From: Candidatus Undinarchaeota archaeon
GTDB lineage: Archaea; SpSt-1190; DYHY01; CAZGQF01
Length of the DNA: 64,000 bases
Assembly: GCA_964527545.1 (NCBI GenBank)
Contig: CAZGQF010000002.1
Location: forward strand, 23,452 to 87,451
Direction: 5' to 3'
Positions 1,792 through 57,255 of the stretch are shown one piece after another. Within the stretch, counting starts at the first letter, position 1. Every line of letters begins with the position of its first letter. The translations under genes were made by a program, and so were the position numbers. A model generated the notes under the pieces. It was not told the DNA's origin, searched no databases, and was given only the letters and a program-made list of their open reading frames with translations.

Positions 1792-1880
1792 TGGGCCCGG
1801 AGGGATTCGAACCCCCGATCCACTGGTTTCTTCCGCAAAGACCGAAGCCAGTTGCCCTATCCAGACTAGGCCACGGGCCC
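1792..1880 (-). tRNA. tRNA-Arg (anticodon UCG) with ~14-nt intron after position 37
   Basis: Manual fold of reverse complement: acceptor GGGCCCG/CGGGCCC, D arm GCCT-AGTCTGGATA-GGGC, anticodon stem ACTGG/CCAGT enclosing 21 nt (7-nt loop CUUCGGA plus 14-nt insert), T arm GGGGG-TTCGAAT-CCCTC, discriminator A. Confidence 0.65.
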
Positions 1881-6805: not shown

Positions 6806-7945
6806 TTAGAGACTCCCCCACTTCACTTCGCCGTCGACTATGGTCGCCTTCACCTGCCAGTTGAGTTCGCGCCCTTCGTAGGGAGACCAGCCGCACCTGC
6901 TCTCTATGGTCTCGCTCGTCACTCTCCACGGCCTCTTCTCCAGCACAACAAGGTCGGCCGGCTTCCCGACCTCAAGGCCTGCCTCAATGTTCATCAGTCC
7001 CGCCGGGTTGTAGACGCACTTGCGGAGGACGTCGTCGAGCGTGAGCCATCCCTCCTCGACGCCCGACATCAAGAGCGGCAGCAGCGTGTCGAGCTCAGGG
7101 ACTCCGCTCGGCGCGTTGTCCAGCTTCTCCTCGCGCGTGTGGGGCGCGTGGTCTGTCCCGATGCAGTAGACCTCTCCCAGGGAGAGACGCAGCTCTTTCA
7201 CCTCCCTCGGCGAGCGGAGCGGAGGGTTCATCTTTGCGAAAGGCCCCCTCTTTCTGTAGTCTTTCTCGGAGAGGAAGAGGTGGTGCGGCGTCACGTCGCA
7301 GGTATAGGGCGCGGCGAGAGAGACTGAGCGGTAGGTGGAGAGGTGGGTGAAGTGGGCGTTCCCGCCCCCGGCCGCCTTTCTCATCTTCTTCACAGCCTCC
7401 TCCTCCGCAATCGCCGGCCTGCTCTTGCAGTGGTTGGCATCTTCCGTGAAGTAGGAAGCGTCTTCGCAATGGATGACATGGAGCCCCTCTTTTTCGAGGT
7501 GTCTCTCTATCGCTTCGATGGAAAGGCTCTCCGCACCGGTCGTCCCCCCATAGACTATCTTGAAGAAGGGGTAGTCGATATCGAAGTTCTCTTCCGTGGC
7601 GAGGAGATAGTGATGGATCTTCGCGTCGGAGCTGGCCGCCGCCTTCTTTGCTCCTTTCAGCCGGTTGAGGGAGTCGACGGGCGGCGACTTGTTGGGCATG
7701 TCGAAGAGGCGGGCCACGCCTCCGTGGAGGGCTGCCCTCCCGCCGGTCACGAAGTCCTCCTTGTGCGACTGCCCGCCGGGAGCGCGGAGATGGGCGTGGA
7801 TGTCGATCAGCGCGGGCAGGACCATCGCCCCCTTCACGTCGATGCCCTGCCTTGAGCGCGGTTTCTTTCCTATCCTCTCGATTCTCTCCCCATACTCAAC
7901 GAAGCCTTCAGTTTTCCCCCACAGCTTCGCATTCTTAAGCAGCAT
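6806..7945 (-). CDS. pyrC: Dihydroorotase (amidohydrolase family)
   Basis: LPALIDIHAHLRAPG...KEDFVTGGRAALHGGV...MPN and CIGTDHAPH metal-binding motifs; start set at ATG 7945 (ORF track extends to 8086). Confidence 0.7.
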   Translation of the reverse strand: MLLKNAKLWGKTEGFVEYGERIERIGKKPRSRQGIDVKGAMVLPALIDIHAHLRAPGGQSHKEDFVTGGRAALHGGVARLFDMPNKSPPVDSLNRLKGAKKAAASSDAKIHHYLLATEENFDIDYPFFKIVYGGTTGAESLSIEAIERHLEKEGLHVIHCEDASYFTEDANHCKSRPAIAEEEAVKKMRKAAGGGNAHFTHLSTYRSVSLAAPYTCDVTPHHLFLSEKDYRKRGPFAKMNPPLRSPREVKELRLSLGEVYCIGTDHAPHTREEKLDNAPSGVPELDTLLPLLMSGVEEGWLTLDDVLRKCVYNPAGLMNIEAGLEVGKPADLVVLEKRPWRVTSETIESRCGWSPYEGRELNWQVKATIVDGEVKWGSL

Positions 7946-11476: not shown

Positions 11477-11577
11477 AGTTAGTCATTATACAGTAGTGAC
11501 TTAAATAGCTTACGGTCCAGATTATGGATTAAAGTCCCTTTTCTGGGCCCTAAAGCGCTCGAGCCAGGGCTGGGAAG

Positions 11578-11613
11578 TCCATGGACTGGAGGGATTCAAA
11601 GCGGTCAATGTCC
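11578..11613. repeat. Truncated copy of tRNA-Ala 3' end plus GGTCAATGTCC module
   Basis: CCATGGACTGGAGGG is identical to 11839-11853 in the tRNA-Ala gene; followed by a degenerate T-arm and GGTCAATGTCC, which recurs at 63507-63517. Confidence 0.6.
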
Positions 11614-11716
11614 TGTGACTCCGTCACAGGCTGGAAGGAAACTTCGTTTCCGACATCCCCGCGAGCCTGTGCTGTCTTTGATAGCACCAAGAAATTTTCT
11701 TTGGGGTTGGACAACC

Positions 11717-11743
11717 CCCTAATTGAGCGGAGCTCAATTGGGC
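11717..11743. repeat. Quasi-palindromic motif CCCTAATTGAGCGGAGCTCAATTGGG (copy 1)
   Basis: Inverted repeat ATTGAGC/GCTCAAT; near-identical copy in opposite orientation at 63682-63706; preceded by palindrome GGGGTTGGACAACCCC. Confidence 0.6.
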
Positions 11744-11841
11744 GCAATCGAGCTATATTGGAAACATTGTTTCCTACTATCGTACGAAGCTCTGCTTCGT
11801 AGATGCTCGATTAGCGTTTCTTTGGAAAAGAAAGGGGGCCA

Positions 11842-11915
11842 TGGACTGGAGGGGATTTGAACCCCTGGCCGCCTCGATGCGAACGAGGCGCTCTACCAGA
11901 CTGAGCTACCAGCCC
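11842..11915 (-). tRNA. tRNA-Ala (anticodon CGC)
   Basis: Manual fold: acceptor GGGCTGG with G3:U70, D arm GCTC-AGTCTGGTA-GAGC, anticodon arm CCTCG-UUCGCAU-CGAGG, T arm AGGGG-TTCAAAT-CCCCT, discriminator A; 74 nt. Confidence 0.85.
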
Positions 11916-11994
11916 GTGTGTTTACCTATGCGAGCGCCGTTGGCGAAGCCAACGAGCGCCCCAGCGCCGGCCGATGGGTTGCGGCCGCGTCTGT

Positions 11995-12015
11995 ACCAGA
12001 CTGAGCTACCAGCCC
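11995..12015. repeat. Duplicated 5' segment of tRNA-Ala (21 nt) without a matching 3' half
   Basis: ACCAGACTGAGCTACCAGCCC at 11995-12015 is identical to 11895-11915 (tRNA positions 1-21); downstream sequence is GC-rich and lacks a CCAGCCC/CCAGTCC acceptor strand. Confidence 0.55.
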
Positions 12016-12047
12016 TTGCAGAAATCTCGGCCACGTCGCTTAAAAAA

Positions 12048-27873: not shown

Positions 27874-28506
27874 ATGGGTATGGATGCTCTTGAGGCCATA
27901 AGATCACGAATTTCTGTCAGAAAGTTCGACCCCACTCCCCTCTCCCGGCAGGAGCTCTACAAGATCCTCGACGCGGCAAGGTGGGCGCCTTCTGCTGGCA
28001 ATCTCCAGTGCTGGGAGTTCATACTTGTCGAGGAAGAGGAGCGGAAGGCCCTGGTGGCAGAGGCCTGCCTCAACCAGGGATGGATTGCGGGCGCCCCCAC
28101 CGTGGTGGTTGTCTGCGCCGACACCGAGAGGAGCGCCCTTCGCTATGGCGAGAGGGGGAAGTATTTCTACTCGCTGCTTGAGACATCGGCGGCGGTGGAG
28201 AACATGCTGGTCGCCGCAACTTCCCAGGGGATAGGCTCCTGCTTCGCGGCCGGGTTCGACGAGGCGGAGCTGGCGCGCATCCTCGACCTCCCTGCCGCTG
28301 TGACCCCCATAGCGGTGGTGCCACTCGGCTATCCTGCAGAGGACGGGGAGCACGAGCACCCCGAGAGGGCGGATTTGAGCAACAGCGTCCACTTCGAGGA
28401 GTACGGCAACTACAACCCGAAGGAGATCCCGGACGCGTTCAGGGCTCCCGCAAAGAAGCCCGTCAAGAAGGGGAAGAGAAAGGGCCTCCTCGGCATCTTC
28501 GCCTAG
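27874..28506 (+). CDS. Nitroreductase-family flavin oxidoreductase
   Basis: N-terminal RISVRKF...P and overall nitroreductase-like pattern; Lys-rich C-terminal tail. Confidence 0.6.
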   Translation: MGMDALEAIRSRISVRKFDPTPLSRQELYKILDAARWAPSAGNLQCWEFILVEEEERKALVAEACLNQGWIAGAPTVVVVCADTERSALRYGERGKYFYSLLETSAAVENMLVAATSQGIGSCFAAGFDEAELARILDLPAAVTPIAVVPLGYPAEDGEHEHPERADLSNSVHFEEYGNYNPKEIPDAFRAPAKKPVKKGKRKGLLGIFA

Positions 28507-31382
28507 TCGAGAAGTTCGTTGATGGAGACCGGCTTTATTCTCTCTTTTTCGCGCAGTGCCGTGAGCAGCGCCTCCGCCGCCTTTTCGTTCACCAGGCAGG
28601 GGACGCTGTGCTCGACTGCGGCCCGCCTCAATTTCTTCCCGTCTCTCGTGGTGGCGACGACCAGCTGGATCTTCCCCTCCCTTATCCTCTTCTCACTCCC
28701 TTCCACCGCTTTTTCAGTCGACCAGCCGTCCCTTTCCAGCATCGCTCTCAGTCTGCCGCCGCTCTTGACGCTGAGCAGGGCGTTTCCCTTCAGCAGTTCG
28801 AAGTCGGCGCCGAGGAGCGCCTTGTAGAGGGCGGCCGGGTAGGTCCTGGCGATCCCCATGCTCTCGCCCGTCGACTTCATCTCAGGACCGAGCGTGAAGT
28901 CTGCACCTTGAAGCTTCTGGAAGGGAAAGACGACGCTCTTAACTGCGACCGCCTTCGGCTCCACCAATCCGCTTCTCTCAAGCGGCACTCCCGTCATCGC
29001 CCGGGTTGCCAGCTTGGCTAGCGGCACCCCTGTCGCCTTGCTGAGAAAGGGGATCGTCCTTGACGCGCGCGGGTTGGCCTCTATGACATAGACGTCGCCC
29101 TCGGAGGCGATGAACTGTATGTTGACCAGTCCGACTATTCCGAGCGCCTCGGCGATGCGCTCCGTGTAGTCGACTATGGCCTCTTTCTCCTTATGGAGCG
29201 ACTGGTGGGGCGTCACGCAGGAAGCGTCGCCGGAGTGGACGCCTGACGGCTCTATGTGCTCCATTATCCCTCCTATCAGCGTCTTTTCACCGTCCCTCAC
29301 CGCGTCGGTCTCGCACTCGATACCCTCCACGAAGCGGTCCATGAGAAGCGGTCGCTCCGCAGTTACTTTGACTGCCTTTTTCACGTACCGCTCGAACTCC
29401 TTCCCGCTTTTCACCACGCGCATCCCCCTCCCGCCGATCACGTAGCTCGGCCTGAGGAGGAGGGGATAGCCCAGTTTCTCCGCCTTTCGCCTCGCCTCGT
29501 CCACGCCATGAGCGACGTCGCCTTCCGGCTGGGGTATGCCGAGTTTTGAGAGAAGGCGGGAGAACTTTTTCCTGTCCTCTGCCAGGTCTATGGATGAGAG
29601 GCTCGTCCCCAGGACTTCGCCTTTCAGCTTGTGGGCGATGTTGATGGAGGTCTGTCCGCCGAACTGGACTACTGTCCCGAGGGGGTCTTCTGCCTCGATG
29701 ACGGCGTTGACGTGCTCGGGGGTGAGGGGCTCGAAGTAGAGCCTGTCGGAGGTGTCGAAGTCGGTCGAGACGGTCTCCGGGTTGTTGTTGACCATCACCG
29801 CCTCGAAGCCGAGCCGCCTCAGCTCGAGAGCGGCGTGGACGCAGCAGTAGTCGAACTCGACTCCCTGGGCGATCCTGATCGGCCCGCCGCCGAGGACTAT
29901 AACCTTTCTCTTCTTGCTCTTCCTCAAGTCGCTCTTGCTCCCCGCAGTCGAGTAGTAGTAGGGCGTCTTTGCGACGAACTCTCCTGCGCAGGTGTCGACC
30001 ATCTTGAACTTGTCTCCCCCTTCTTTCTCCATCCCCTTTACCTTCTCAAGGAACCAGGGGTTGACATTGGTCAGCTCAGCCACCCTCTCCACGCTCATCT
30101 TTTTCAGCGCCTCCCTGATGGCGAAGAGCCTCATGTGGGTGGGGTTCTCGAGAGTTTTCTCCAGGTCGCCCTCGAAGCAAGAGTCGATGCTCCCGAAGCC
30201 GAGGTCGAGGGAGCGGATCGCCTTGTGGAGCGCCCCCTCGAAAGAGCGGGAGATGGCCATCACCTCGCCGGTCGACTTCATCTGCGTCCCTATTGCAGTC
30301 TCGGCGTCGTCAACCTTGTCGAACGGCCACCTCGGTATCTTGACCACCACGTAGTCGAGGGCGGGCTCGTAGAAGGCGCTGGTTTCCGTGATGGGGTTCT
30401 TTATCTGGTCAAGGCTCTTGCCCATCGCTATCTTGGCCGATATCCTTGCTATGGGGTAGCCGGTCGCCTTGGAGGCGAGGGCCGACGAGCGGGAGAGGCG
30501 CGTGTTGACCTCTATCACCCTGTACTCTCCCGTCTCCTCGTTCAGGGCGAACTGGATGTTGCACCCTCCCTCTATCCCGAGAGATCTGATTATCCTGATG
30601 GCCGCGGCCCGGAGCATCTGGTGATCCTTGTCTGAGAGGGTCTGGGCTGGCGCCACCACTATGCTCTCGCCAGTGTGGACGCCGCACGGGTCGAGGTTCT
30701 CCATGGTGCAGACGACTATGCAGTTGTCTTTGCCGTCCCTCACAACCTCGTACTCGAACTCGCCCCAGCCGTAGACGCTCTCCTCGACGAGGACCTGGTG
30801 TATCCGCGAGAAGGCGAGGCCCCTCTCCACTATTTTCTCCAGCTTTTTTTCGTTCGCAGCGATGCCCCCGCCGCTCCCGCCAAGGGTGAAGGCAGGCCTG
30901 ATGATGACGGGGTAGCCTATCCTCTCTGCCGCCTTCTTTGCCTCCTCCATCGTCTCTGCAGGCTCGCCGCGGAGGATCGGCTCGCCTATCTGTCTCATCA
31001 GCTGGTTGAAAGAGCTCCTGTTGCCGCCCTTGACCATGGAGCGGATGGGCGTCCCCATCACTTCGATGCCGAGCTCGTCCAGGACGCCGCGCTCGTGGAG
31101 CTCCATCGCCAGGTTGAGGGCTGTCTGGCCGCCCATGCTGGCAATTATGCCGTCCGGCTTCTCTATGCGCAGTATGTCGGCCACGTTGCGCGGCGTTAGC
31201 GGCTCTATGTAGACTCTGTCAGCGACGTCTGTGTCGGTCTGTATGGTGGCAGGGTTCGAGTTGACGATGACTGTCTCTATGCCCTCTTCCCTCAGCGCAA
31301 GCGAGGCCTGGGAGCCGGAGTAGTCGAACTCGGCGGCTTGCCCTATCCTGATGGGGCCGGAGCCGAGGATGACCACTTTCAT
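28503..31382 (-). CDS. carB: Carbamoyl-phosphate synthase large subunit
   Basis: Duplicated ATP-grasp halves, each beginning ILGSGPIRIGQ / VLGGGPIRIAQ with GGQTALN/GGQTSIN; 959 aa. Confidence 0.9.
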   Translation of the reverse strand: MKVVILGSGPIRIGQAAEFDYSGSQASLALREEGIETVIVNSNPATIQTDTDVADRVYIEPLTPRNVADILRIEKPDGIIASMGGQTALNLAMELHERGVLDELGIEVMGTPIRSMVKGGNRSSFNQLMRQIGEPILRGEPAETMEEAKKAAERIGYPVIIRPAFTLGGSGGGIAANEKKLEKIVERGLAFSRIHQVLVEESVYGWGEFEYEVVRDGKDNCIVVCTMENLDPCGVHTGESIVVAPAQTLSDKDHQMLRAAAIRIIRSLGIEGGCNIQFALNEETGEYRVIEVNTRLSRSSALASKATGYPIARISAKIAMGKSLDQIKNPITETSAFYEPALDYVVVKIPRWPFDKVDDAETAIGTQMKSTGEVMAISRSFEGALHKAIRSLDLGFGSIDSCFEGDLEKTLENPTHMRLFAIREALKKMSVERVAELTNVNPWFLEKVKGMEKEGGDKFKMVDTCAGEFVAKTPYYYSTAGSKSDLRKSKKRKVIVLGGGPIRIAQGVEFDYCCVHAALELRRLGFEAVMVNNNPETVSTDFDTSDRLYFEPLTPEHVNAVIEAEDPLGTVVQFGGQTSINIAHKLKGEVLGTSLSSIDLAEDRKKFSRLLSKLGIPQPEGDVAHGVDEARRKAEKLGYPLLLRPSYVIGGRGMRVVKSGKEFERYVKKAVKVTAERPLLMDRFVEGIECETDAVRDGEKTLIGGIMEHIEPSGVHSGDASCVTPHQSLHKEKEAIVDYTERIAEALGIVGLVNIQFIASEGDVYVIEANPRASRTIPFLSKATGVPLAKLATRAMTGVPLERSGLVEPKAVAVKSVVFPFQKLQGADFTLGPEMKSTGESMGIARTYPAALYKALLGADFELLKGNALLSVKSGGRLRAMLERDGWSTEKAVEGSEKRIREGKIQLVVATTRDGKKLRRAAVEHSVPCLVNEKAAEALLTALREKERIKPVSINELLD

Positions 31383-50041: not shown

Positions 50042-50338
50042 GTGGAACCGGCCGACCACATGCTTTCCAAGATACCGTTGGACTTGAAGAAGGCCGAAGG
50101 CAACATCGACACGGAGATCCTCCGCGTCGGAATCATAGCGGAGCTCGACGCCATCAACCTCTACGAGCAGATGGCAGCGATGACAGACGACGTCCTCCTG
50201 AAGAAGGTCTTCATGGACATCGCAGAAGAGGAGAAGACTCACGTCGGCGAGTTCCAGGCCCTGCTGCTCGAGAAGGACCCTGAGCAGAAGAAAGAGCTCG
50301 AAGAGGGCAAGGAAGAAGTCGACGAGATGCGCGAGTGA
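50042..50338 (+). CDS. Ferritin-like (rubrerythrin-type) small protein
   Basis: ELDAINLYE and EEEKTHVGEF resemble ExxH di-iron motifs. Confidence 0.4.
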   Translation: MEPADHMLSKIPLDLKKAEGNIDTEILRVGIIAELDAINLYEQMAAMTDDVLLKKVFMDIAEEEKTHVGEFQALLLEKDPEQKKELEEGKEEVDEMRE

Positions 50339-50391
50339 AGAGTGTCAAGGGGTTCTTCTCTGCTTGACCGGTTGTCTGGCCAGCGTCTCAG

Positions 50392-50958
50392 TCACTCTTC
50401 CCCCAAGATGTCGTAGAGATCTTCTTTCAGGACTATCTTGTTGGTCCTTCCTAGGGGCTTTTTCTCGACTACGCCCTTTCCCTTCAATTTCTTTATTGCG
50501 CGGTGGACGCTGACTTTGTTCATACCAGGAAGCTTGGAGAACTCATACTGCTTGGCCTCCCCACCTTTCTCCTTCAGCTTGTCTACTATTTTTCGTTCAT
50601 CTTGGGAGAGAAGGTCCAGCATCATGTCTGTATTCTTTTTCAGCGATTCGTCTTTCTCGACGACCTGCTCCGACATCAAATAGTATACCAGCGTCCCAAC
50701 GAGGACGCCCGAGAAAGCTGCGAATGGAATGAACAGTTCGGGCGGCAGTCTTCTCCTGCTTTCCCTTTCGCACTCCAGACATCTCGTCACGTTTGGGGGG
50801 GCCGTGAAGTTGAGGCTCCGGTTATCCAGCCTTTCCGCTTGGAACCTCTGGAACATGCTCGTCCTTCTGTCTTCTATGTAGAGGCTGGCCGACAATACAA
50901 GGAGGGCGAAAGTTACGAGGACCCCTATGCCCAGCACAGTCCGGCGGTTTTGGTTCAT
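50392..50958 (-). CDS. Membrane-anchored winged-helix transcriptional regulator
   Basis: Two TM helices followed by cytoplasmic wHTH (DERKIVDKLKEKGGEAKQYEFSKLPGMNKVSVHRAIKKLKGKGVV). Confidence 0.5.
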   Translation of the reverse strand: MNQNRRTVLGIGVLVTFALLVLSASLYIEDRRTSMFQRFQAERLDNRSLNFTAPPNVTRCLECERESRRRLPPELFIPFAAFSGVLVGTLVYYLMSEQVVEKDESLKKNTDMMLDLLSQDERKIVDKLKEKGGEAKQYEFSKLPGMNKVSVHRAIKKLKGKGVVEKKPLGRTNKIVLKEDLYDILGEE

Positions 50959-51002
50959 CCTGACAGTCTCTGACGGGCTCGAGAATAAATGTCTTTTCGT
51001 GA

Positions 51003-51060
51003 GTTTCGCATTTTGAAACGTTGCTTAAAAATCGTTTCGGAAAGACCTATCAATCGTTTC
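51003..51060. promoter_or_regulatory. Candidate operator/promoter with repeated CGTTTC/GAAACG half-sites
   Basis: GAAACG(51015-51020)-N12-CGTTTC(51033-51038) inverted repeat spanning TTAAAAAT; further CGTTTC at 51055-51060 and GTTTCG at 51004-51009. Confidence 0.4.
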
Positions 51061-51158
51061 TTGTTTAGTAACTTTAGGATCGGGGGGAAAGGTCCACACG
51101 GGAATGATGAGATGAAAGGAAAATTCGGCTCGCAAGTTAATGGAAAGGGTTCCGAAAA

Positions 51159-51857
51159 ATGAAACCAATAGTGGTTCTTGATGATGTCTGGAAGACATAT
51201 AGAATGGGAGAGGTCGATGTCCCCGCAATAAGGGGCGTCAGCCTCGAGATCAAGCAGGGCGACTTCGTGGCTGTCACGGGCCCCTCGGGCAGCGGGAAGT
51301 CAACAATGCTAAACATGATAGGCTGTTTGGATGCGCCGACGCGCGGAACAATTCACCTGAAGGGCCAGAGCATAACCACGTTGCCTGAATCGCGCCTCTC
51401 GGAGCTGAGGGGAAGGACCATTGGATTCATCTTTCAGCAGTACAACCTGATCCCGTCGGTCGATGCCTACTCAAACGTCATACTGCCGCTTGAGTTCCAA
51501 GAGGTCGATGACGACGAGGCAGACAAGAGGGTCAGGGAGGTCATGGAGAGGGTTGGTCTGGGCGGTTTCATGCACCATCTGCCCACGGAACTCTCCGGCG
51601 GTCAGCAGCAGAGGGTCGCGATAGCGAGGTGCCTGGTCTCCAGGCCGGAGATGATACTGGCGGACGAGCCGACAGGCTCCCTCGACAGCGTCACCGGTGA
51701 GAACATAATCGGCATGCTGAGGGAGTTCTGGGAGGAGGGGAAGACAGTGGTCATCGTGACGCACAACCCAGAGCTTGCAAAGTTCGCTCACACGACTGTC
51801 GGACTTCAGGACGGCATGGTAGTCGAGACAAAGGTAAACAAGGAGACAAAGAGATGA
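51159..51857 (+). CDS. ABC transporter ATP-binding protein (MacB/LolD-type)
   Basis: Walker A GPSGSGKST, signature LSGGQQQRV, Walker B ILADEPT. Confidence 0.85.
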   Translation: MKPIVVLDDVWKTYRMGEVDVPAIRGVSLEIKQGDFVAVTGPSGSGKSTMLNMIGCLDAPTRGTIHLKGQSITTLPESRLSELRGRTIGFIFQQYNLIPSVDAYSNVILPLEFQEVDDDEADKRVREVMERVGLGGFMHHLPTELSGGQQQRVAIARCLVSRPEMILADEPTGSLDSVTGENIIGMLREFWEEGKTVVIVTHNPELAKFAHTTVGLQDGMVVETKVNKETKR

Positions 51858-53125
51858 CAAAAATGAAGAAAAGAAAGATGCTTGAAAGAACGGTTTTGAT
51901 GACCTTTTTGTTTGGTCTTCTGGTCGGCGGGGCCTCCGCGGAAACGGGCTCCGTCACCCTCAACCTGGTCAACCAAGACCCCGACCCAGCAGTCGCTGGG
52001 CGTCTCGTGGAGATAAGGCTCGGCCTGGAGAACAGGGGAAGCGAGACGCTCAATGACCTCAAAGTGAAGCTGGCTCCGGAGTATCCCTTCGAGCTCCTGC
52101 CGGGCAGTGACGGCATAGTGAGTGTGGGCTCCCTGAGGCCCTTCCAGAGCGACGAGGAGATCAGCATAGTGAAGGCCAGGCTGAACAGCTTTTCTGGGGC
52201 AACTTCCGGCTCTTACGACTTGGACGTCTTCGTCTATGAGAGCGGAAGGGAGAACCAGACCAAGGTAAGGAGGACAGTCAGTCTCGAAATCGAGAGCAGG
52301 GAGATGGTAGCGGTGACGGACATAAGCAGGTCTGCGCTACTGCCTGGGGAGAAGGGCGAGCTGTCCTTCACCCTCAAGAACGTGGGGTCCGCATCTCTGC
52401 AGGATGTCACATTTTCGTGGACAAGCGAGGACGACGCAATACTCCCCGTCAACTCGCCGAATTCGAGGACCCTCCCAGAAATTGGGGCGGGTGAGAGCGT
52501 GGAACTCAAGTACGATGTCATGGCAAGCACGGGCGTGGCCGCGGGGCTGTACAAGCTCAGCATGGAGATAAGCTATGACGATCCCATCACTGATGAGAAT
52601 GCATCGGAGGAGAGCGTCGCAGGGGTTTACGTGGGGGGAGGGACAGATTTCGAGGTGGCTTTTTCCGGCTCTTCCGACGAGGACTTCACATTTTCCATAG
52701 CCAACACAGGCGCAAACCCGTCCTACTCTGTTGCTGTCCACGTCCCTGAACAGGATGGTTGGAGGGCGGCAGGGACGGACACTTCGATAATCGGCAACCT
52801 TGAACAGGGCGACTACACCGTTGTGACCTTCCAGCTGGAGGGGACCAGGAACAGCGGTGAGCTCGCCCTGGAGATAAGGTACACGGATACTGCAGGCGAG
52901 AGAAGGGTTTTGAGTAAGAAGGTAAGCATGCCTTTTTCGCTGGCCAGCGGGACCTCGTCTGCAATTGAGTCTGTCAGGACATCAAATGAATCGGGGAGGC
53001 CGAGGGGGATGAATATGGTGCCCCAAGAAGGCGCACTCTCGCGGCTGTGGGAGCAGGTCAAGCTGCCCCTTCTTGCAGTTGCCGCCTTGGCAGGGCTCTG
53101 GCTCTACAGAAAGAAGAAGGGATGA
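51854..53125 (+). CDS. Secreted beta-sandwich protein with C-terminal TM anchor (CARDB/COG1361-like ABC partner)
   Basis: Signal peptide, three approx 110-aa repeats, C-terminal LPLLAVAALAGLWLY anchor; ATGA overlap with the ATPase gene. Confidence 0.55.
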   Translation: MTKMKKRKMLERTVLMTFLFGLLVGGASAETGSVTLNLVNQDPDPAVAGRLVEIRLGLENRGSETLNDLKVKLAPEYPFELLPGSDGIVSVGSLRPFQSDEEISIVKARLNSFSGATSGSYDLDVFVYESGRENQTKVRRTVSLEIESREMVAVTDISRSALLPGEKGELSFTLKNVGSASLQDVTFSWTSEDDAILPVNSPNSRTLPEIGAGESVELKYDVMASTGVAAGLYKLSMEISYDDPITDENASEESVAGVYVGGGTDFEVAFSGSSDEDFTFSIANTGANPSYSVAVHVPEQDGWRAAGTDTSIIGNLEQGDYTVVTFQLEGTRNSGELALEIRYTDTAGERRVLSKKVSMPFSLASGTSSAIESVRTSNESGRPRGMNMVPQEGALSRLWEQVKLPLLAVAALAGLWLYRKKKG

Positions 53126-53129
53126 GCGG

Positions 53130-54332
53130 ATGAAGCTGGCCAAGAGTCTTAGTCGCGCCTTTGGGATAGTCGCCCACAGCAAGTTGAGGAGCTGGCTTAC
53201 CATAATCGGCGTAGTCATTGGCGTGGCATCTGTCATAGCGATAGTCTCCATGGGGAAAGGCATGCAGGCCTCCGTGGAAGAGGGGCTGGGAGGACTTGGA
53301 GCGGACCTGATAACAATAACGCCGGGCGCTTCGAGAGGCTTCGGCAGGGGACCTTTCAGGATGGAGACGGGTGCGGTGGAAGAGGAGGTCACCCTCGACG
53401 ACAAGGACGTCCTTGCCTTGAAGCTGATTGTCGGTATAGACGAGATAAGCCCTGAGATATCGGGTAACGTCGAGGTCAGCTACTTGAGCAAGTTTGCCAA
53501 AGTCAACATAAGAGGAATAGACCCCTCCGTCTGGCCGAAGGTTACGACAGAGGAAGTGGTCGGGGGGAGGATGTTTGGCCCTGCGGACAGGAATGTCGTC
53601 CTGATAGGGAGCAGGCTGGCCGAGGACTATTTCGACTCGCCGGTTGGGCTGAACCAGAGGATCCAGGTCGAGGGCGGCTCTTATAGGGTTGTTGGCATAC
53701 TGGACGGCGGCTCCACGGTCTACATGCCCATGCAGAGCGCCTACAGTCTTCTGGACGACGTGGAGCGGGGGACATATGGTTCCATAGTCGTCAAGATTAG
53801 GGAGGGTGGGGACCTGGACGCCGTCAGGGAGGAGATTGAGAGGCGGCTTAGGATATCAAGGAACGTCTCCGAGAAGGAACAGGATTTCTCTGTGAGCGAC
53901 CCGTCTGCCTTCAGCGAGAGGATAAGCGAGGTGAGCACCACAATGACCACCTTCCTGGCAGGGATAGCTGCAATCTCGCTGGTGGTCGGCTCCGTCGGCA
54001 TAGCGAACACCATGTTCACCTCCGTCTTGGAGAGGACAAAGGACATTGGGATAATGAAGGCGATAGGGGCCAGGAACCGCGACGTGTTCACAATTTTCAT
54101 TTTCAGTTCCGCCCTGCTCAGTCTCTTTGGCGGTATCATAGGGGTCGCCCTCGGGATCTGGCTCTCTACTTTGGTGGGTCCTGTGATGGGTACGGGCGTT
54201 CAGGGCGTTGTTACCCCAGATGTGGTAGCCGGCTCCCTTTCCATCTCTGTTGTGGTCGGGCTGGTCTCCGGCTTTGCTCCCGCCTACAAGGCATCAAAGC
54301 TGAAGCCGGCAGAAGCGTTGAGATGGGGTTAG
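53130..54332 (+). CDS. ABC transporter permease (FtsX/MacB-type)
   Basis: N-terminal TM, large periplasmic-type domain, C-terminal 3-TM FtsX-like bundle; start at ATG 53130. Confidence 0.75.
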   Translation: MKLAKSLSRAFGIVAHSKLRSWLTIIGVVIGVASVIAIVSMGKGMQASVEEGLGGLGADLITITPGASRGFGRGPFRMETGAVEEEVTLDDKDVLALKLIVGIDEISPEISGNVEVSYLSKFAKVNIRGIDPSVWPKVTTEEVVGGRMFGPADRNVVLIGSRLAEDYFDSPVGLNQRIQVEGGSYRVVGILDGGSTVYMPMQSAYSLLDDVERGTYGSIVVKIREGGDLDAVREEIERRLRISRNVSEKEQDFSVSDPSAFSERISEVSTTMTTFLAGIAAISLVVGSVGIANTMFTSVLERTKDIGIMKAIGARNRDVFTIFIFSSALLSLFGGIIGVALGIWLSTLVGPVMGTGVQGVVTPDVVAGSLSISVVVGLVSGFAPAYKASKLKPAEALRWG

Positions 54333-54374
54333 CTTTCTGGAAAAGGATTTAACCCTGCGTGCAGGCTCTGCTCC

Positions 54375-54839
54375 ATGGCCGAGCAGGTCGTCACTTTTGG
54401 GGCTGGCTGCTTCTGGCACGTCCAGGCCGCCTTCGACAAGATCGACGGCGTGGTCGAGACGACAGTGGGATACATGGGCGGCGACTTTGCGGAGCCGACC
54501 TATGAAGAGGTCCACACCGGAAAGACCGGCCACGCAGAGGTCTGCCAGGTAATCTACGACACCGAGAAGGTCTCTTTCGGGAAGCTGCTCGACGTCTTCT
54601 GGTCGATACACGACCCGACACAGGTCGACAGGCAGGGGCCGAACGTCGGCCCCCAGTACCGCTCTGTCGTCTTCTTCCACTCAAAAGAGCAGAGGGAGAA
54701 GGCCCTGGCCTCGCGGGAGAGGGAGGCGGAGAGGCGCGAGGAAGAGATAGCGACTGAGATTCTTCCTGCAAAGACGTTCTGGAAGGCGGAAAACTGCCAC
54801 CAGAAATACTACAAGAAGGGGCCTCTCAGCCTCTTATGA
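54375..54839 (+). CDS. msrA: Peptide methionine sulfoxide reductase MsrA
   Basis: Catalytic GCFWH/GAGCFW motif near the N-terminus and HDPT region. Confidence 0.85.
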   Translation: MAEQVVTFGAGCFWHVQAAFDKIDGVVETTVGYMGGDFAEPTYEEVHTGKTGHAEVCQVIYDTEKVSFGKLLDVFWSIHDPTQVDRQGPNVGPQYRSVVFFHSKEQREKALASREREAERREEEIATEILPAKTFWKAENCHQKYYKKGPLSLL

Positions 54840-55271: not shown

Positions 55272-55377
55272 CTCCCGCCTGCGTCTCCCGCCTTTTTAGT
55301 TTTAACGAGTGACAAGTTTGGCGAGATGTGTTGGGTCTGTGCTCTGCTCCAGAAAGGGTTATATCTCTGGGGTGAGG

Positions 55378-57255
55378 ATGGCGGCCATGAAAAAGGCAGT
55401 CCTCTTTTTGGCCTTGATCCTTTTGACGCCCGCCTTCGCGGAGACAATTAGTGACGCCTGCGGAAACGGCGTGGGATGGAGCGACAATACGGCAGAGCCC
55501 CATTGCGAAACGCAGGACTGCTGCGCCTGGTACCAGACGACACATGTCCACGACCTCGGCGAGATCGCCTCCGGCCAGCTCGAGGTCGAGTTCATGCCCA
55601 GCTTCTCTGCTGGCTGCCAGCCCGGCCCGGGGAGCGGCATCTGGGTCTCCGAAGGCGGCCCGGTTGAAGACGACGAAAGCTGGATGCAGTGGAGCTGGGA
55701 GAAGATCTACACGATCACCGAAACCACGCAGTCTGAAGGGGGCTGGTGGCACAAGTACTCTGAGACGTTCCAGGTCTCAAACACGCGATACGTGAAGGTC
55801 TCCATCGAGAACTGCTACAACGACTACTCCAAAGCCACTCTCTCCGCGGACGAGCCCGCAGCTGAGTGCGGGAACGGCATCATCGAGGAGGGCGAGATGT
55901 GCGAAAGCGACGCGGACTGCTACGAAGGCGAGTGCATCGATTGCCAGTGCTTCGCGTCTACGTCTGTCTGCGGCGACGGCATCTTATCATCAGACGAAGA
56001 GTGCGAGACCGACGCAGACTGTCCAACAGACATGGCCTGTGCAGAGTGCGAGTGCATCGACTCCGTCTGCGGCGACGGCATCCTCTCAGCTGACGAGATG
56101 TGCGAGACAGATGACCACTGTCCGCCGGGCTTGATCTGCGCCGAGTGCGAGTGCATCGAGACAGGCTCTGTCTGCGGCGACGGCATCCTCTCAGCTGACG
56201 AGATGTGCGAGACAGACGACCACTGTCCGCCGGGCTTGATCTGCGCCGAGTGCGAGTGCATCGAGACAGGCTCTGTCTGCGGCGACGGCATCCTCTCAGC
56301 TGACGAGATGTGCGAGACAGACGACCACTGTCCGCCGGGCTTGATCTGCGCCGAGTGCGAGTGCATCGAGACAGGTCCTGTCTGCGGCGACGGAGTGATA
56401 GAGGGAGAAGAGGAGTGCGAGTACGATTACGACTGTTTGGAAGGCGAGGAGTGCGACAACTGCGTCTGTGAGCCGTTTGAGCCGGTCTGCGGCGACGGCA
56501 TCCTCTCGTCAGACGAGGAGTGCGAAGACGATGGAGACTGCGACCAGGGCGAGTTCTGCGAGAACTGCGAGTGCGAGTCTCCTGTTTGCGGCGACGGAGT
56601 GATAGAGGGTTGGGAGGACTGCGAAGGCGACTGGGACTGCATGGAGACCGGCGAGACCTGCATAGACTGCAGCTGCATCCACACAGGCTCTGTCTGCGGC
56701 GACGGCGTGATAGAGGGAGAAGAGGAGTGTGAGTACGATTACGACTGTCTGGAAGGCGAGGAGTGCGACAACTGCGTCTGCGAGGAAGCAGGTCCTGTCT
56801 GCGGAAACGGCATCGTGGAAGCGGGGGAGACTTGCGAGAGCGACATGGACTGCGCCGGCGACTTCTACTGCGACAACTGTGAGTGCAAGCCGATTGCCCC
56901 CACGCCGGAAGAGGGGGTGGGCCAAGAGGAGCCAGTTAGGTGTCCGGGCAGGCCGGACTGCGGCGACGGCATACTCTCCGCTGACGAAGAGTGCGAGTCG
57001 GATGGCGACTGCATGGCTCCTTTCTCGTACTGCAGCTGCTGCGAGTGCCTGTCGACCTGCGGCGACGGCGACGTCGACGCGGGGGAGGAGTGCGAGTCGG
57101 ACCTTCACTGTGGAGAAGGTAGTGAGTGCGTCGGCTGCAGGTGCGTGAGGGAGGGGGTCGGCGGGGGTTCCGGACAGACCGAACAGCTCAACAGGATAGC
57201 TGAACTCTTGGAGGAGCTGATCTCCATACTGAGGGGCCTTTTCGGCGGTCAGTAG
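55378..57255 (+). CDS. Secreted cysteine-rich repeat protein (CGDG-x-EECE-x-D-x-DC repeats)
   Basis: Signal peptide MAAMKKAVLFLALILLTPAFA; about 12 repeats of approx 35 aa each beginning (V)CGDG; start at ATG 55378. Confidence 0.65.
   Translation: MAAMKKAVLFLALILLTPAFAETISDACGNGVGWSDNTAEPHCETQDCCAWYQTTHVHDLGEIASGQLEVEFMPSFSAGCQPGPGSGIWVSEGGPVEDDESWMQWSWEKIYTITETTQSEGGWWHKYSETFQVSNTRYVKVSIENCYNDYSKATLSADEPAAECGNGIIEEGEMCESDADCYEGECIDCQCFASTSVCGDGILSSDEECETDADCPTDMACAECECIDSVCGDGILSADEMCETDDHCPPGLICAECECIETGSVCGDGILSADEMCETDDHCPPGLICAECECIETGSVCGDGILSADEMCETDDHCPPGLICAECECIETGPVCGDGVIEGEEECEYDYDCLEGEECDNCVCEPFEPVCGDGILSSDEECEDDGDCDQGEFCENCECESPVCGDGVIEGWEDCEGDWDCMETGETCIDCSCIHTGSVCGDGVIEGEEECEYDYDCLEGEECDNCVCEEAGPVCGNGIVEAGETCESDMDCAGDFYCDNCECKPIAPTPEEGVGQEEPVRCPGRPDCGDGILSADEECESDGDCMAPFSYCSCCECLSTCGDGDVDAGEECESDLHCGEGSECVGCRCVREGVGGGSGQTEQLNRIAELLEELISILRGLFGGQ
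56065..56379 (+). repeat. Three near-perfect 105-bp tandem repeats inside the Cys-rich protein gene
   Basis: Unit GTCTGCGGCGACGGCATCCTCTCAGCTGACGAGATGTGCGAGACAGA(T/C)GACCACTGT...ATCGAGACAGGCTCT begins at 56065, 56170 and 56275; one mismatch between copies. Confidence 0.85.

Follow-up and report, generated by a model that had tools for sequence, protein, structure and literature searches.

Does a DNA-binding protein that is held in the membrane control the ATP-binding cassette (ABC) export operon encoded beside it, and through which DNA sites would it act? The question is raised by four closely packed genes in a stretch of 64,000 nucleotides (the window) on contig CAZGQF010000002.1 of a Candidatus Undinarchaeota archaeon, namely a transmembrane regulator gene on the minus strand followed on the plus strand by genes for an ABC ATPase, a COG1361 protein and a permease. 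The divergent spacer between the regulator and ABC ATPase genes measures exactly 200 bp (50959–51158), as originally predicted, and carries a series of GAAAC/GTTTC half-sites. Judged by sequence comparison, these half-sites are not the product of chance and recur upstream of homologous regulator genes. We consider it probable, though well short of certain, that the regulator, a DUF7343 protein, is a one-component regulator that binds this GAAAC array and would control its own gene as well as the divergent export operon. Very likely the locus is a genuine gene switch anchored in the membrane, of a general type known before; the ABC export operon is probably its target.

The regulator and its half-site array

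The regulator gene (50392–50958, minus strand) is an open reading frame (ORF) encoding 188 aa with a match to Pfam DUF7343. Hydropathy indicated two membrane segments, at residues 5–30 (transmembrane helix 1, TM1) and 73–95 (TM2), and both are helical in the AlphaFold2 (AF2) model. The chain consists of a short cytoplasmic N-terminus, TM1, an outer loop of 44–45 aa, TM2, a stalk helix of ~20 residues and a winged helix at ~118–186. The DUF7343 model (PF24034) matched residues 118–177 with E 4.5e-9 and 36.5 bits, above the gathering cut-off of 27.6, and the precomputed annotation of an identical protein, P0001, likewise gives PF24034; a second Pfam family, HVO_A0114, matched weakly and below its cut-off. 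The AF2 model has a mean predicted local distance difference test (pLDDT) score of 82.7, exceeding 90 in the winged helix, and shows a long TM1, a short loop helix and a TM2 that runs on into the stalk helix and then the winged helix. Foldseek superposed the winged helix on the DNA-binding domains of CodY (C-terminal), MarR-type and ArsR-type regulators. Only the winged-helix core superposes on MarR structures; longer alignments give large root mean square deviations. By sequence, the nearest solved protein was the helix-turn-helix (HTH) of Lrp-type PH1519 (E 3e-4), a further weak PDB match was to an ESCRT-III winged helix, and the Pfam MarR, MarR_2 and Lrp models did not match the regulator at E<=0.01. 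Because there are two helices, the N-terminus and the winged helix should lie on the same side of the membrane; we infer that the winged helix is cytoplasmic, and three N-X-S/T sequons in the loop (N46, N50 and N56) are consistent with this placing. By uniting a DNA-binding domain and membrane helices in a single chain, the protein matches the architecture of a transmembrane transcription regulator (TTR). The two helices, the winged helix and the membrane-tethered one-component arrangement proposed in the original prediction were all supported by Pfam, AF2, Foldseek and hydropathy.

An exhaustive HMMER search at E<=1e-3 returned a family of 745 clusters, with members of 160–215 aa, most among the matches listed being 160–190 aa long. 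Even the nearest relatives of the regulator are only 34–47% identical to it (the closest ~41–47%), and a scan of the 64-kb window with the regulator hidden Markov model (HMM) revealed no further copies. Alignment of 25 members showed conservation of TM2, of an ‘LKKNT’ segment just past the membrane and of the winged helix. Within TM2, G88 is invariant and forms a G84xxxG88 motif with G84. The two cysteines of the predicted CLECE loop are present (C60-L-E-C63, a CxxC motif). The outer loop that carries them is not conserved in the alignment, and is therefore a weak candidate for a sensor shared by the family. Our literature search found nothing on DUF7343 or HVO_A0114, and no published operator or target for the DUF7343 family.

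In the spacer, four GAAAC/GTTTC pentamers fall within 58 bp. This is the densest such cluster of the 64 kb, and was reached in 3 of 300 Markov simulations. Sites A (51056–51060) and B (51034–51038) read GAAAC on the minus strand, −102 and −80 from the regulator ATG. In regulator orientation, site D (51015–51019, −61) is GTTTC and site E (51003–51007, −49) is again GAAAC. The forward sites are thus spaced by 22 bp (A and B) and 31 bp (B and E). Sites E and D together form a palindrome, GTTTC-N7-GAAAC (51003–51019), which lies 13 nt upstream of the TATA of the regulator; the window holds one copy, and the motif appeared in 6 of 100 shuffles. The original prediction had chosen another pair, GAAACG-N12-CGTTTC. 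It exists exactly, at 51015–51038 (sites D and B), spans the TATA-like TTAAAAAT, is the sole copy in the window and occurred in none of 100 shuffles, or in 14% of them when one mismatch was allowed. As an operator unit, however, it did not hold up, the spacing of D and B not being conserved (see below). Of the two additional half-sites that had been claimed, one is a third exact CGTTTC (51055–51060); the other, at 51003–51008, reads GTTTCG and so shares the core GTTTC, not the hexamer CGTTTC. The hexamer CGTTTC by itself shows no enrichment in the window, with 26 copies against 29.8 expected.

Elsewhere in the window, pairs of GAAAC and GTTTC were not counted as operators because they lack the array and TATA context. 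Those rejected were the GGAAAC-N3-GTTTCC hairpins at 11637–11651 and 11760–11774, near a tRNA gene, and a lone GTTTC-N8-GAAAC at 1911.

For comparison we assembled 18 other loci of homologous regulators from public assemblies (designated by L numbers), including some from a survey of COG1361 operons, and counted the cores within the 160 bp preceding each regulator gene. Presence of the half-sites at related promoters had been set beforehand as the test of the prediction, and 17 of the 18 loci (genomic GC 25–51%) carry 2–6 GAAAC/GTTTC half-sites there. Together with the window they amount to 75 half-sites against 7.4 expected, in genomes of 25–59% GC. Because of the kinship among many of the loci, this figure is to be read as a footprint and not as an independent-sample probability. 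Aligned, the loci gave the consensus TCATATAG-n-TGAAACTATAC-N11-CTGAAACTAT-N11-TTGAAAC-TnA-GTTTCA-N6-TGAAAC-N10-TTTATATA-(~23 nt)-ATG, with TGAAACTnAGTTTCA directly before N6-TGAAAC. Forward sites lie 20–23, 31–32, 40–43 or 63 bp apart, that is, at whole helical turns, in all loci except L039, which has composite sites, and L110, which has one distant outlier.

A palindrome GTTTC-N7/8-GAAAC stands just upstream of the TATA of the regulator in 12 of the 18 loci. In nine it is GTTTC-N8-GAAAC at −59/−46 (±2 nt) from the ATG; L023 and L109 have it at other offsets, and L028 has the N7 form, as does the window. The window preserves the order and orientation of the consensus sites: site B aligns with the conserved CTGAAACTAT site and site A with the conserved TGAAACTATAC site, which in the homologues abuts the TATA of the divergent gene. 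Where homologues have both D and B (e.g. L016, L017 and L025), the gap between the two is 3 nt and contains no TATA. In the window, the D/B pair measures 18 bp from centre to centre, compared with 12–13 bp in the conserved palindrome.

Promoters and divergent partners across the family

The promoter of the regulator itself was assigned by homology to a TATA-like TTTATT at 50984–50989 (minus strand), −31 from the ATG; a TATA-like hexamer occupies −29 to −32 in 13 of the 18 loci. A TATA ~30 nt before the ATG points to a leaderless or near-leaderless mRNA. For the operon, homology alone nominates the candidate TATA TTTAGTAA (51064–51071, plus strand), 3 nt from site A. In homologues whose divergent gene encodes the small secreted protein sec164, the alignment consensus has a TATA-like CTATATGA 2 nt from site A on the divergent-gene side, and in L109 TTATATAG is found 9 nt from site A. 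Transcription from TTTAGTAA would give the operon a 5′ untranslated region (UTR) of ~60–65 nt. The alternative promoter element, TTAAAAAT (51025–51032), lies between sites D and B and could serve in either direction. It had been put forward as the TATA-like element of the spacer; in the alignment it has no conserved counterpart, and homology favours TTTAGTAA instead. The choice between the two is decisive for the sign of regulation, activation or repression.

In the closest homologues of the regulator (36–42% identity) the divergent gene is sec164, followed by genes for a SHOCT-like membrane protein, a His-rich lipoprotein and a DUF4405 protein, and not an ABC operon. Other divergent partners are a thioredoxin-DsbD fusion (L028) and a DsbA/thioredoxin operon (L110). 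The arrangement seen in the window recurs without being universal: a two-helix family member is divergent from an ABC-COG1361-FtsX operon in three further lineages, L039, L040 (with one extra membrane-protein gene between regulator and operon) and L109, where regulator and window protein share 44% identity in the C-terminal part. All three spacers carry GAAAC/GTTTC cores. That of L039 has two GTTTCGTTTCactatGTTTCa copies around TTTTATATA. In L040 a GTTTCA-N6-TGAAAC pair, −61/−48 from the regulator ATG, separates two divergent TATA boxes; the window pair is at −61/−49. In L109 a GAAAC is followed 22 bp on by a second GAAAC, then by GTTTC-N8-GAAAC and TTTTATAA.

A survey of 52 non-redundant ABC-COG1361-FtsX loci showed a sec164 homologue directly upstream of the operon in 19. 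Beside such operons a second DUF7343 subtype occurs (L012 and L061), consisting of a signal peptide, an outer domain of ~150 aa, one membrane helix and a winged helix. Its promoters bear a different repeat, GTTCC-N5-GTTCC, a 7–17 nt spacer, TATATT, 3–4 nt and GTTCC, laid out at L012:3150–3252 and 7350–7476 (ABC and sec164-like promoters) and at L061:1270–1345 (ABC promoter). The motif therefore covaries with the regulator subtype, and this is the best indirect evidence that the repeats are bound by these regulators and that their regulon includes the ABC operon. Three GGAAC copies upstream of the ABC gene of L033 were dismissed as chance, as they lie inside the coding region of another gene.

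The sec164 proteins, whose genes are the usual divergent partners of the regulator family, start with a signal peptide, contain SAYRGD in many cases and have a pair of helical repeats of consensus AIEAGDYDAWKEA. Copies were located at L001:5354–5848 (minus strand), L012:7473–7892 and L011:2981–3472 and in 28 further loci. No Pfam or NCBIfam model matched the family, and a scan of the window with the sec164 HMM did not find a copy.

Genes for thiol redox and oxidative damage also recur beside the regulator family. Examples are DsbA/thioredoxin_4 downstream in L009, DsbD_TM at L014:33–770, the divergent thioredoxin-DsbD fusion at L028:4751–5908 and the divergent DsbA, aminotransferase and thioredoxin genes at L110:2196–4735. 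In the window, msrA (54375–54839) and a rubrerythrin/EncFtn-like gene (50042–50338) belong to the same group. The outer loop of the L028 regulator has a CX6C motif, that of the window regulator CxxC. These neighbours hint at an extracytoplasmic redox theme.

A model of regulation and its alternatives

According to the model that we prefer, the two helices would keep the C-terminal winged helix at the cytoplasmic face of the membrane, and it would bind the GAAAC half-sites of the divergent region, with the regulator probably acting as a dimer or higher oligomer joined through the conserved GxxxG-containing TM2. The array would comprise two parts. One is the palindrome at 51003–51019, immediately upstream of the transcription factor B recognition element (BRE)/TATA of the predicted leaderless promoter of the regulator; the other is formed by the direct repeats at 51034 and 51056, phased by 31 and 22 bp toward the promoter of the ABC-COG1361-FtsX operon. 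Both the regulator gene and the divergent envelope export operon may be regulated in this way. From the layout we infer that activation is the favoured sign, positive autoregulation included, because the conserved sites, ~−45 to −105 relative to the regulator ATG, precede the TATA boxes and do not cover the TATA or start; the sign is the least secure step of the model. The signal could be sensed by the variable outer loop with its CxxC motif, or in the membrane by way of a partner such as the permease.

Several observations weigh against this model. The lack of loop conservation leaves the family without a common sensor domain. The window array does not contain site C, which most homologues have, and its palindrome spacer is 7 nt long, not 8. 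The comparison covers related promoters and no true orthologous one, the nearest regulator relative being only ~41–47% identical. The divergent partner of most close homologues is not an ABC operon, and a DUF7343-type membrane regulator lies within ~6 kb (the fetched locus) in only 9 of the 52 surveyed ABC-COG1361-FtsX loci. The long 5′ UTR implied by TTTAGTAA contrasts with the leaderless-looking promoters of the regulator and of msrA. Finally, if the operon used TTAAAAAT as its TATA, that element would have sites B and D on either side, a layout that would speak for repression.

Repression of this kind is the essence of one alternative, in which GAAACG-N12-CGTTTC (51015–51038) brackets TTAAAAAT as the operon TATA and a bound dimer blocks TATA-binding protein and transcription factor B until a signal arrives through the Cys loop. 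The pair is exact and was never produced by shuffling, TTAAAAAT is a plausible archaeal TATA-like element, and repressive positions do occur, since an extra GTTTC is seen just downstream of the TATA in L040 and L109, as is GTTCC in L012 and L061. The homologues nevertheless keep the neighbouring GTTTC-N7/8-GAAAC and not the D/B spacing, which shrinks to 3 nt without an intervening TATA; D and B are moreover divergently oriented with an 18-bp centre-to-centre distance unlike the 12–13 bp of the conserved pair, and the Cys loop is not conserved. We regard this alternative as improbable. The array might instead serve autoregulation only, with an independent operon promoter and an adjacency that is incidental, owing to genome rearrangement. 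It is true that the best-conserved elements, the palindrome and the TATA at a fixed distance, belong to the promoter of the regulator, that the divergent partner varies by lineage (sec164 operon, Trx (thioredoxin)-DsbD fusion, DsbA/Trx operon or ABC) and that most COG1361 operons have no such regulator nearby. What makes autoregulation alone doubtful is that the distal sites A and B are conserved too and abut the TATA of the divergent gene in homologues, that four independent lineages (the window, L039, L040 and L109) pair a two-helix regulator with an ABC operon, and that in L012 the ABC and sec164-like promoters share the motif of the adjacent regulator subtype.

The remaining two alternatives deny the regulator a part in reading the array. 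Winged helices also mediate protein contacts, and the weak PDB match to an ESCRT-III winged helix would fit a protein whose winged helix makes such contacts or tethers DNA to the membrane, while a different, soluble factor binds the array. Against this, the array accompanies the regulator gene in different phyla and over a GC range of 25–59%, a different regulator subtype goes with a different repeat, and the array is positioned relative to TATA boxes, so that we give a separate factor little credence. Pure coincidence in AT-rich intergenic DNA can point to the lack of CGTTTC enrichment and to the 14% of shuffles that yield GAAACG-N12-CGTTTC with one mismatch; it has to contend with the cluster statistics (3/300 simulations) and with sequence, order, phasing and position conserved in 17 of the 18 other loci, and is hardly believable.

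A bolder extension of the preferred model, which we hold to be rather unlikely, is that the two-helix DUF7343 regulator, sec164 and the ABC-COG1361-FtsX pump make up a conserved archaeal circuit for sensing and answering envelope stress. A regulator without a sensor of its own may then read the pump or the secreted partner through TM2 and switch the module on, a sensing of flux or partner that may be analogous to BceAB-BceS. The cue may be extracytoplasmic oxidative or thiol stress; this is suggested by the recurrent DsbA/thioredoxin, DsbD and Trx-DsbD neighbours and, in the window, by msrA and the loop CxxC.

The export operon, known systems and neighbouring features

The divergent operon opens with the ABC ATPase gene (51159–51857, plus strand; 232 aa; Pfam ABC_tran 3.5e-35), whose product is MacB/LolD/FtsE-like. 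Its best NCBIfam matches were the ATPase part of MacB (4.5e-65), FtsE and LolD, all below the equivalog cut-offs, and it is therefore not an orthologue of a named system. A 4-nt overlap leads into the gene for a COG1361/CARDB envelope protein (51854–53125, plus strand; 423 aa; NPCBM_assoc 4.8e-12, CARDB 3.6e-10). This protein begins with a signal or N-terminal helix and continues through three beta-sandwich domains and a linker rich in Ser and Gly to a membrane anchor at the C-terminus, after which comes RKKKG. Its AF2 model (pLDDT 71) shows beta-sandwiches at 34–146, 152–260 and 266–358, a disordered linker and a C-terminal membrane helix; the only PDB matches were generic Ig-like repeats, and hence we draw no functional conclusion from it. 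The third gene, for a MacB-type (FtsX-fold) permease of 400 aa (53130–54332, plus strand; MacB_PCD 2.1e-36, FtsX 7.1e-20), follows after a gap of 4 nt. An alternative start, TTG 53073, was considered, and ATG 53130 appears the more likely one because homologues align only from ~residue 13–19 of the longer ORF. Hydropathy gave hydrophobic segments at 18–46, ~268–300, 318–354 and 360–385, i.e. four membrane helices, with a large extracytoplasmic domain between TM1 and TM2; MacB_PCD spans residues 40–257 of the long ORF. The NCBIfam MacB model matched the permease with 7.7e-41, again below its cut-off, and NCBIfam places ATPase and permease nearest to MacB, LolCDE and FtsEX.

With an FtsX-fold four-helix permease and an ATPase of the MacB/LolD/FtsE clade, the operon is of the MacB type (type VII). 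The composition originally predicted, a MacB-type ATPase, a secreted beta-sandwich protein with a C-terminal anchor and an FtsX-type permease, was confirmed by Pfam, NCBIfam and AF2. The order ATPase, COG1361 protein, MacB-type permease recurs in >80 loci from metagenomes and genomes. Homologues carry the source name ‘COG1361 S-layer family protein’ and are found in Woesearchaeota, Nanoarchaeota, Aenigmarchaeota and Methanoperedens. A role in export or detoxification would follow from family resemblance, that is, from the MacB fold. A literature search on COG1361 ABC operons in archaea found no experimental work.

The operon shares with MacAB-TolC, LolCDE and type VII systems in general a separate ATPase and a four-helix permease with a large extracytoplasmic TM1-TM2 domain. 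It differs from them in scores far below the equivalog cut-offs and in having no gene for a MacA-type adaptor or an outer-membrane channel; archaea are not known to have an outer membrane of the MacAB-TolC kind. The position between ATPase and permease is taken instead by the gene for the anchored triple beta-sandwich COG1361 protein, and many genomes add a small secreted helical protein. BceAB-BceRS systems combine a ten-helix permease with a two-component system, whereas the window permease has four helices, and neither a histidine kinase nor a response regulator was found among the adjacent genes scanned.

The regulator has the winged-helix fold of MarR and Lrp/AsnC proteins and, like them, a palindromic operator (here predicted) with an AT-rich centre. 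It has neither the MarR dimerisation helices nor a RAM domain, and membrane helices replace the soluble effector domain. BcrR of Enterococcus faecalis has an N-terminal XRE-type HTH and four membrane helices, and BcrAB is not known to be a MacB/FtsX-type transporter. BcrR is a transmembrane one-component regulator, encoded as an independent transcription unit, of the adjacent ABC operon BcrAB, which takes part in the response to an envelope-active compound (PMC3968067). The window regulator, also encoded next to an ABC operon, resembles this bacterial protein by description, with no homology implied. TTRs are a recognised class, reported to be widespread in archaea with ~4 per genome (PMC10269533); the window protein has the same combination of DNA-binding domain and membrane helices in one polypeptide, the class being defined by architecture alone. 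The functional or biochemical work that we found on archaeal membrane-bound one-component regulators is limited to ArnR/ArnR1. These membrane-bound activators of Sulfolobus acidocaldarius recognise two inverted repeats at −43 to −84, both needed for binding (PMC6396743). Like the regulator described here they are archaeal, with two membrane helices and paired inverted repeats upstream of BRE/TATA, and they activate genes for a cell-surface structure (PMC6396743). The domain order of ArnR is opposite, an N-terminal HTH being followed by HAMP and sensor domains and two C-terminal helices (PMC6396743), so that the window protein, whose two helices come first and whose winged helix is C-terminal, with no sensor domain in the cytoplasm, falls outside that family. 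Operators differ as well (TCGAC-N5-GTCGA for ArnR, GTTTC-N7/8-GAAAC plus phased direct repeats for the window family), as do the targets, archaellum and pili for ArnR against, by prediction, an ABC export module here. The window protein would work like the TTR, ArnR and BcrR examples yet belongs to none of their families.

The genes around the locus are ordinary chromosomal genes. An Rfam scan of 50300–51400 identified no known RNA, leaving an explanation of the spacer by a riboswitch or small RNA without support. An upstream ORF of 16 codons (51111–51162, plus strand; MKGKFGSQVNGKGSEK) that overlaps the ABC start by ATGA was set aside as probably due to chance, because any ABC gene starting with ATGA closes an upstream frame carrying TGA; L039 has a 27-codon upstream ORF with the same ATGA overlap, ~90 nt before the ABC start at 1204. 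Next to the operon lies msrA (54375–54839). An ATTTAA at 54347–54352, 28 nt before its ATG at 54375, indicates that msrA is probably a separate leaderless unit outside the operon, and the sequence suggests that leaderless transcripts are common in the source genome. On the other side of the locus there is a rubrerythrin/EncFtn-like gene (50042–50338).

Farther along, an ORF at 55309–57255 (plus strand), starting 977 nt past the permease stop, encodes a Cys-rich protein of 648 aa with an N-terminal signal-like segment and no Pfam match. It is built of tandem units of ~35 aa, e.g. VCGDGILSADEMCETDDHCPPGLICAECECIETGS, three copies of which are identical. Parts of the two ends of the tRNA-Ala(CGC) gene at 11842–11915 (minus strand) are repeated on either side of it within 11560–12040, ‘ccatggactggaggg’ at 11580 and ‘accagactgagctaccagccc’ at ~11987. 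The copies may be an integration scar or a tRNA remnant. ARAGORN reported an 89-nt tRNA-like gene with an undetermined two-base anticodon at 1792–1880 (minus strand), and the lone GTTTC-N8-GAAAC (1911–1928) lies 30 nt from it. CarB, encoded at 28503–31382 (minus strand), has 959 aa and is ~100 residues shorter than its homologues (1020–1090 aa). One relative is 78% identical and the next, in Micrarchaeota-like genomes, ~53%. The source lineage is very sparsely sampled.

How membrane-fixed proteins find and control promoters is poorly understood in any organism. The family described here consists of small proteins and is widespread. Its operator can be predicted clearly, as a palindrome accompanied by helically phased direct repeats that keep a fixed distance from a leaderless promoter, and a likely target lies next door, so that binding, oligomerisation and sensing become directly testable. 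Beyond the first observation, the comparison adds an operator architecture common to the family, covariation of motif and regulator subtype, and an association of regulator, sec164 and ABC module. It also gives an initial way into the regulation of the ABC-COG1361-FtsX module, found widely among archaea, and shows that a small secreted protein, sec164, often accompanies the module as a fourth component. If the circuit of regulator, secreted protein and pump were to prove true, it would be the first defined archaeal envelope stress response with a predicted operator.

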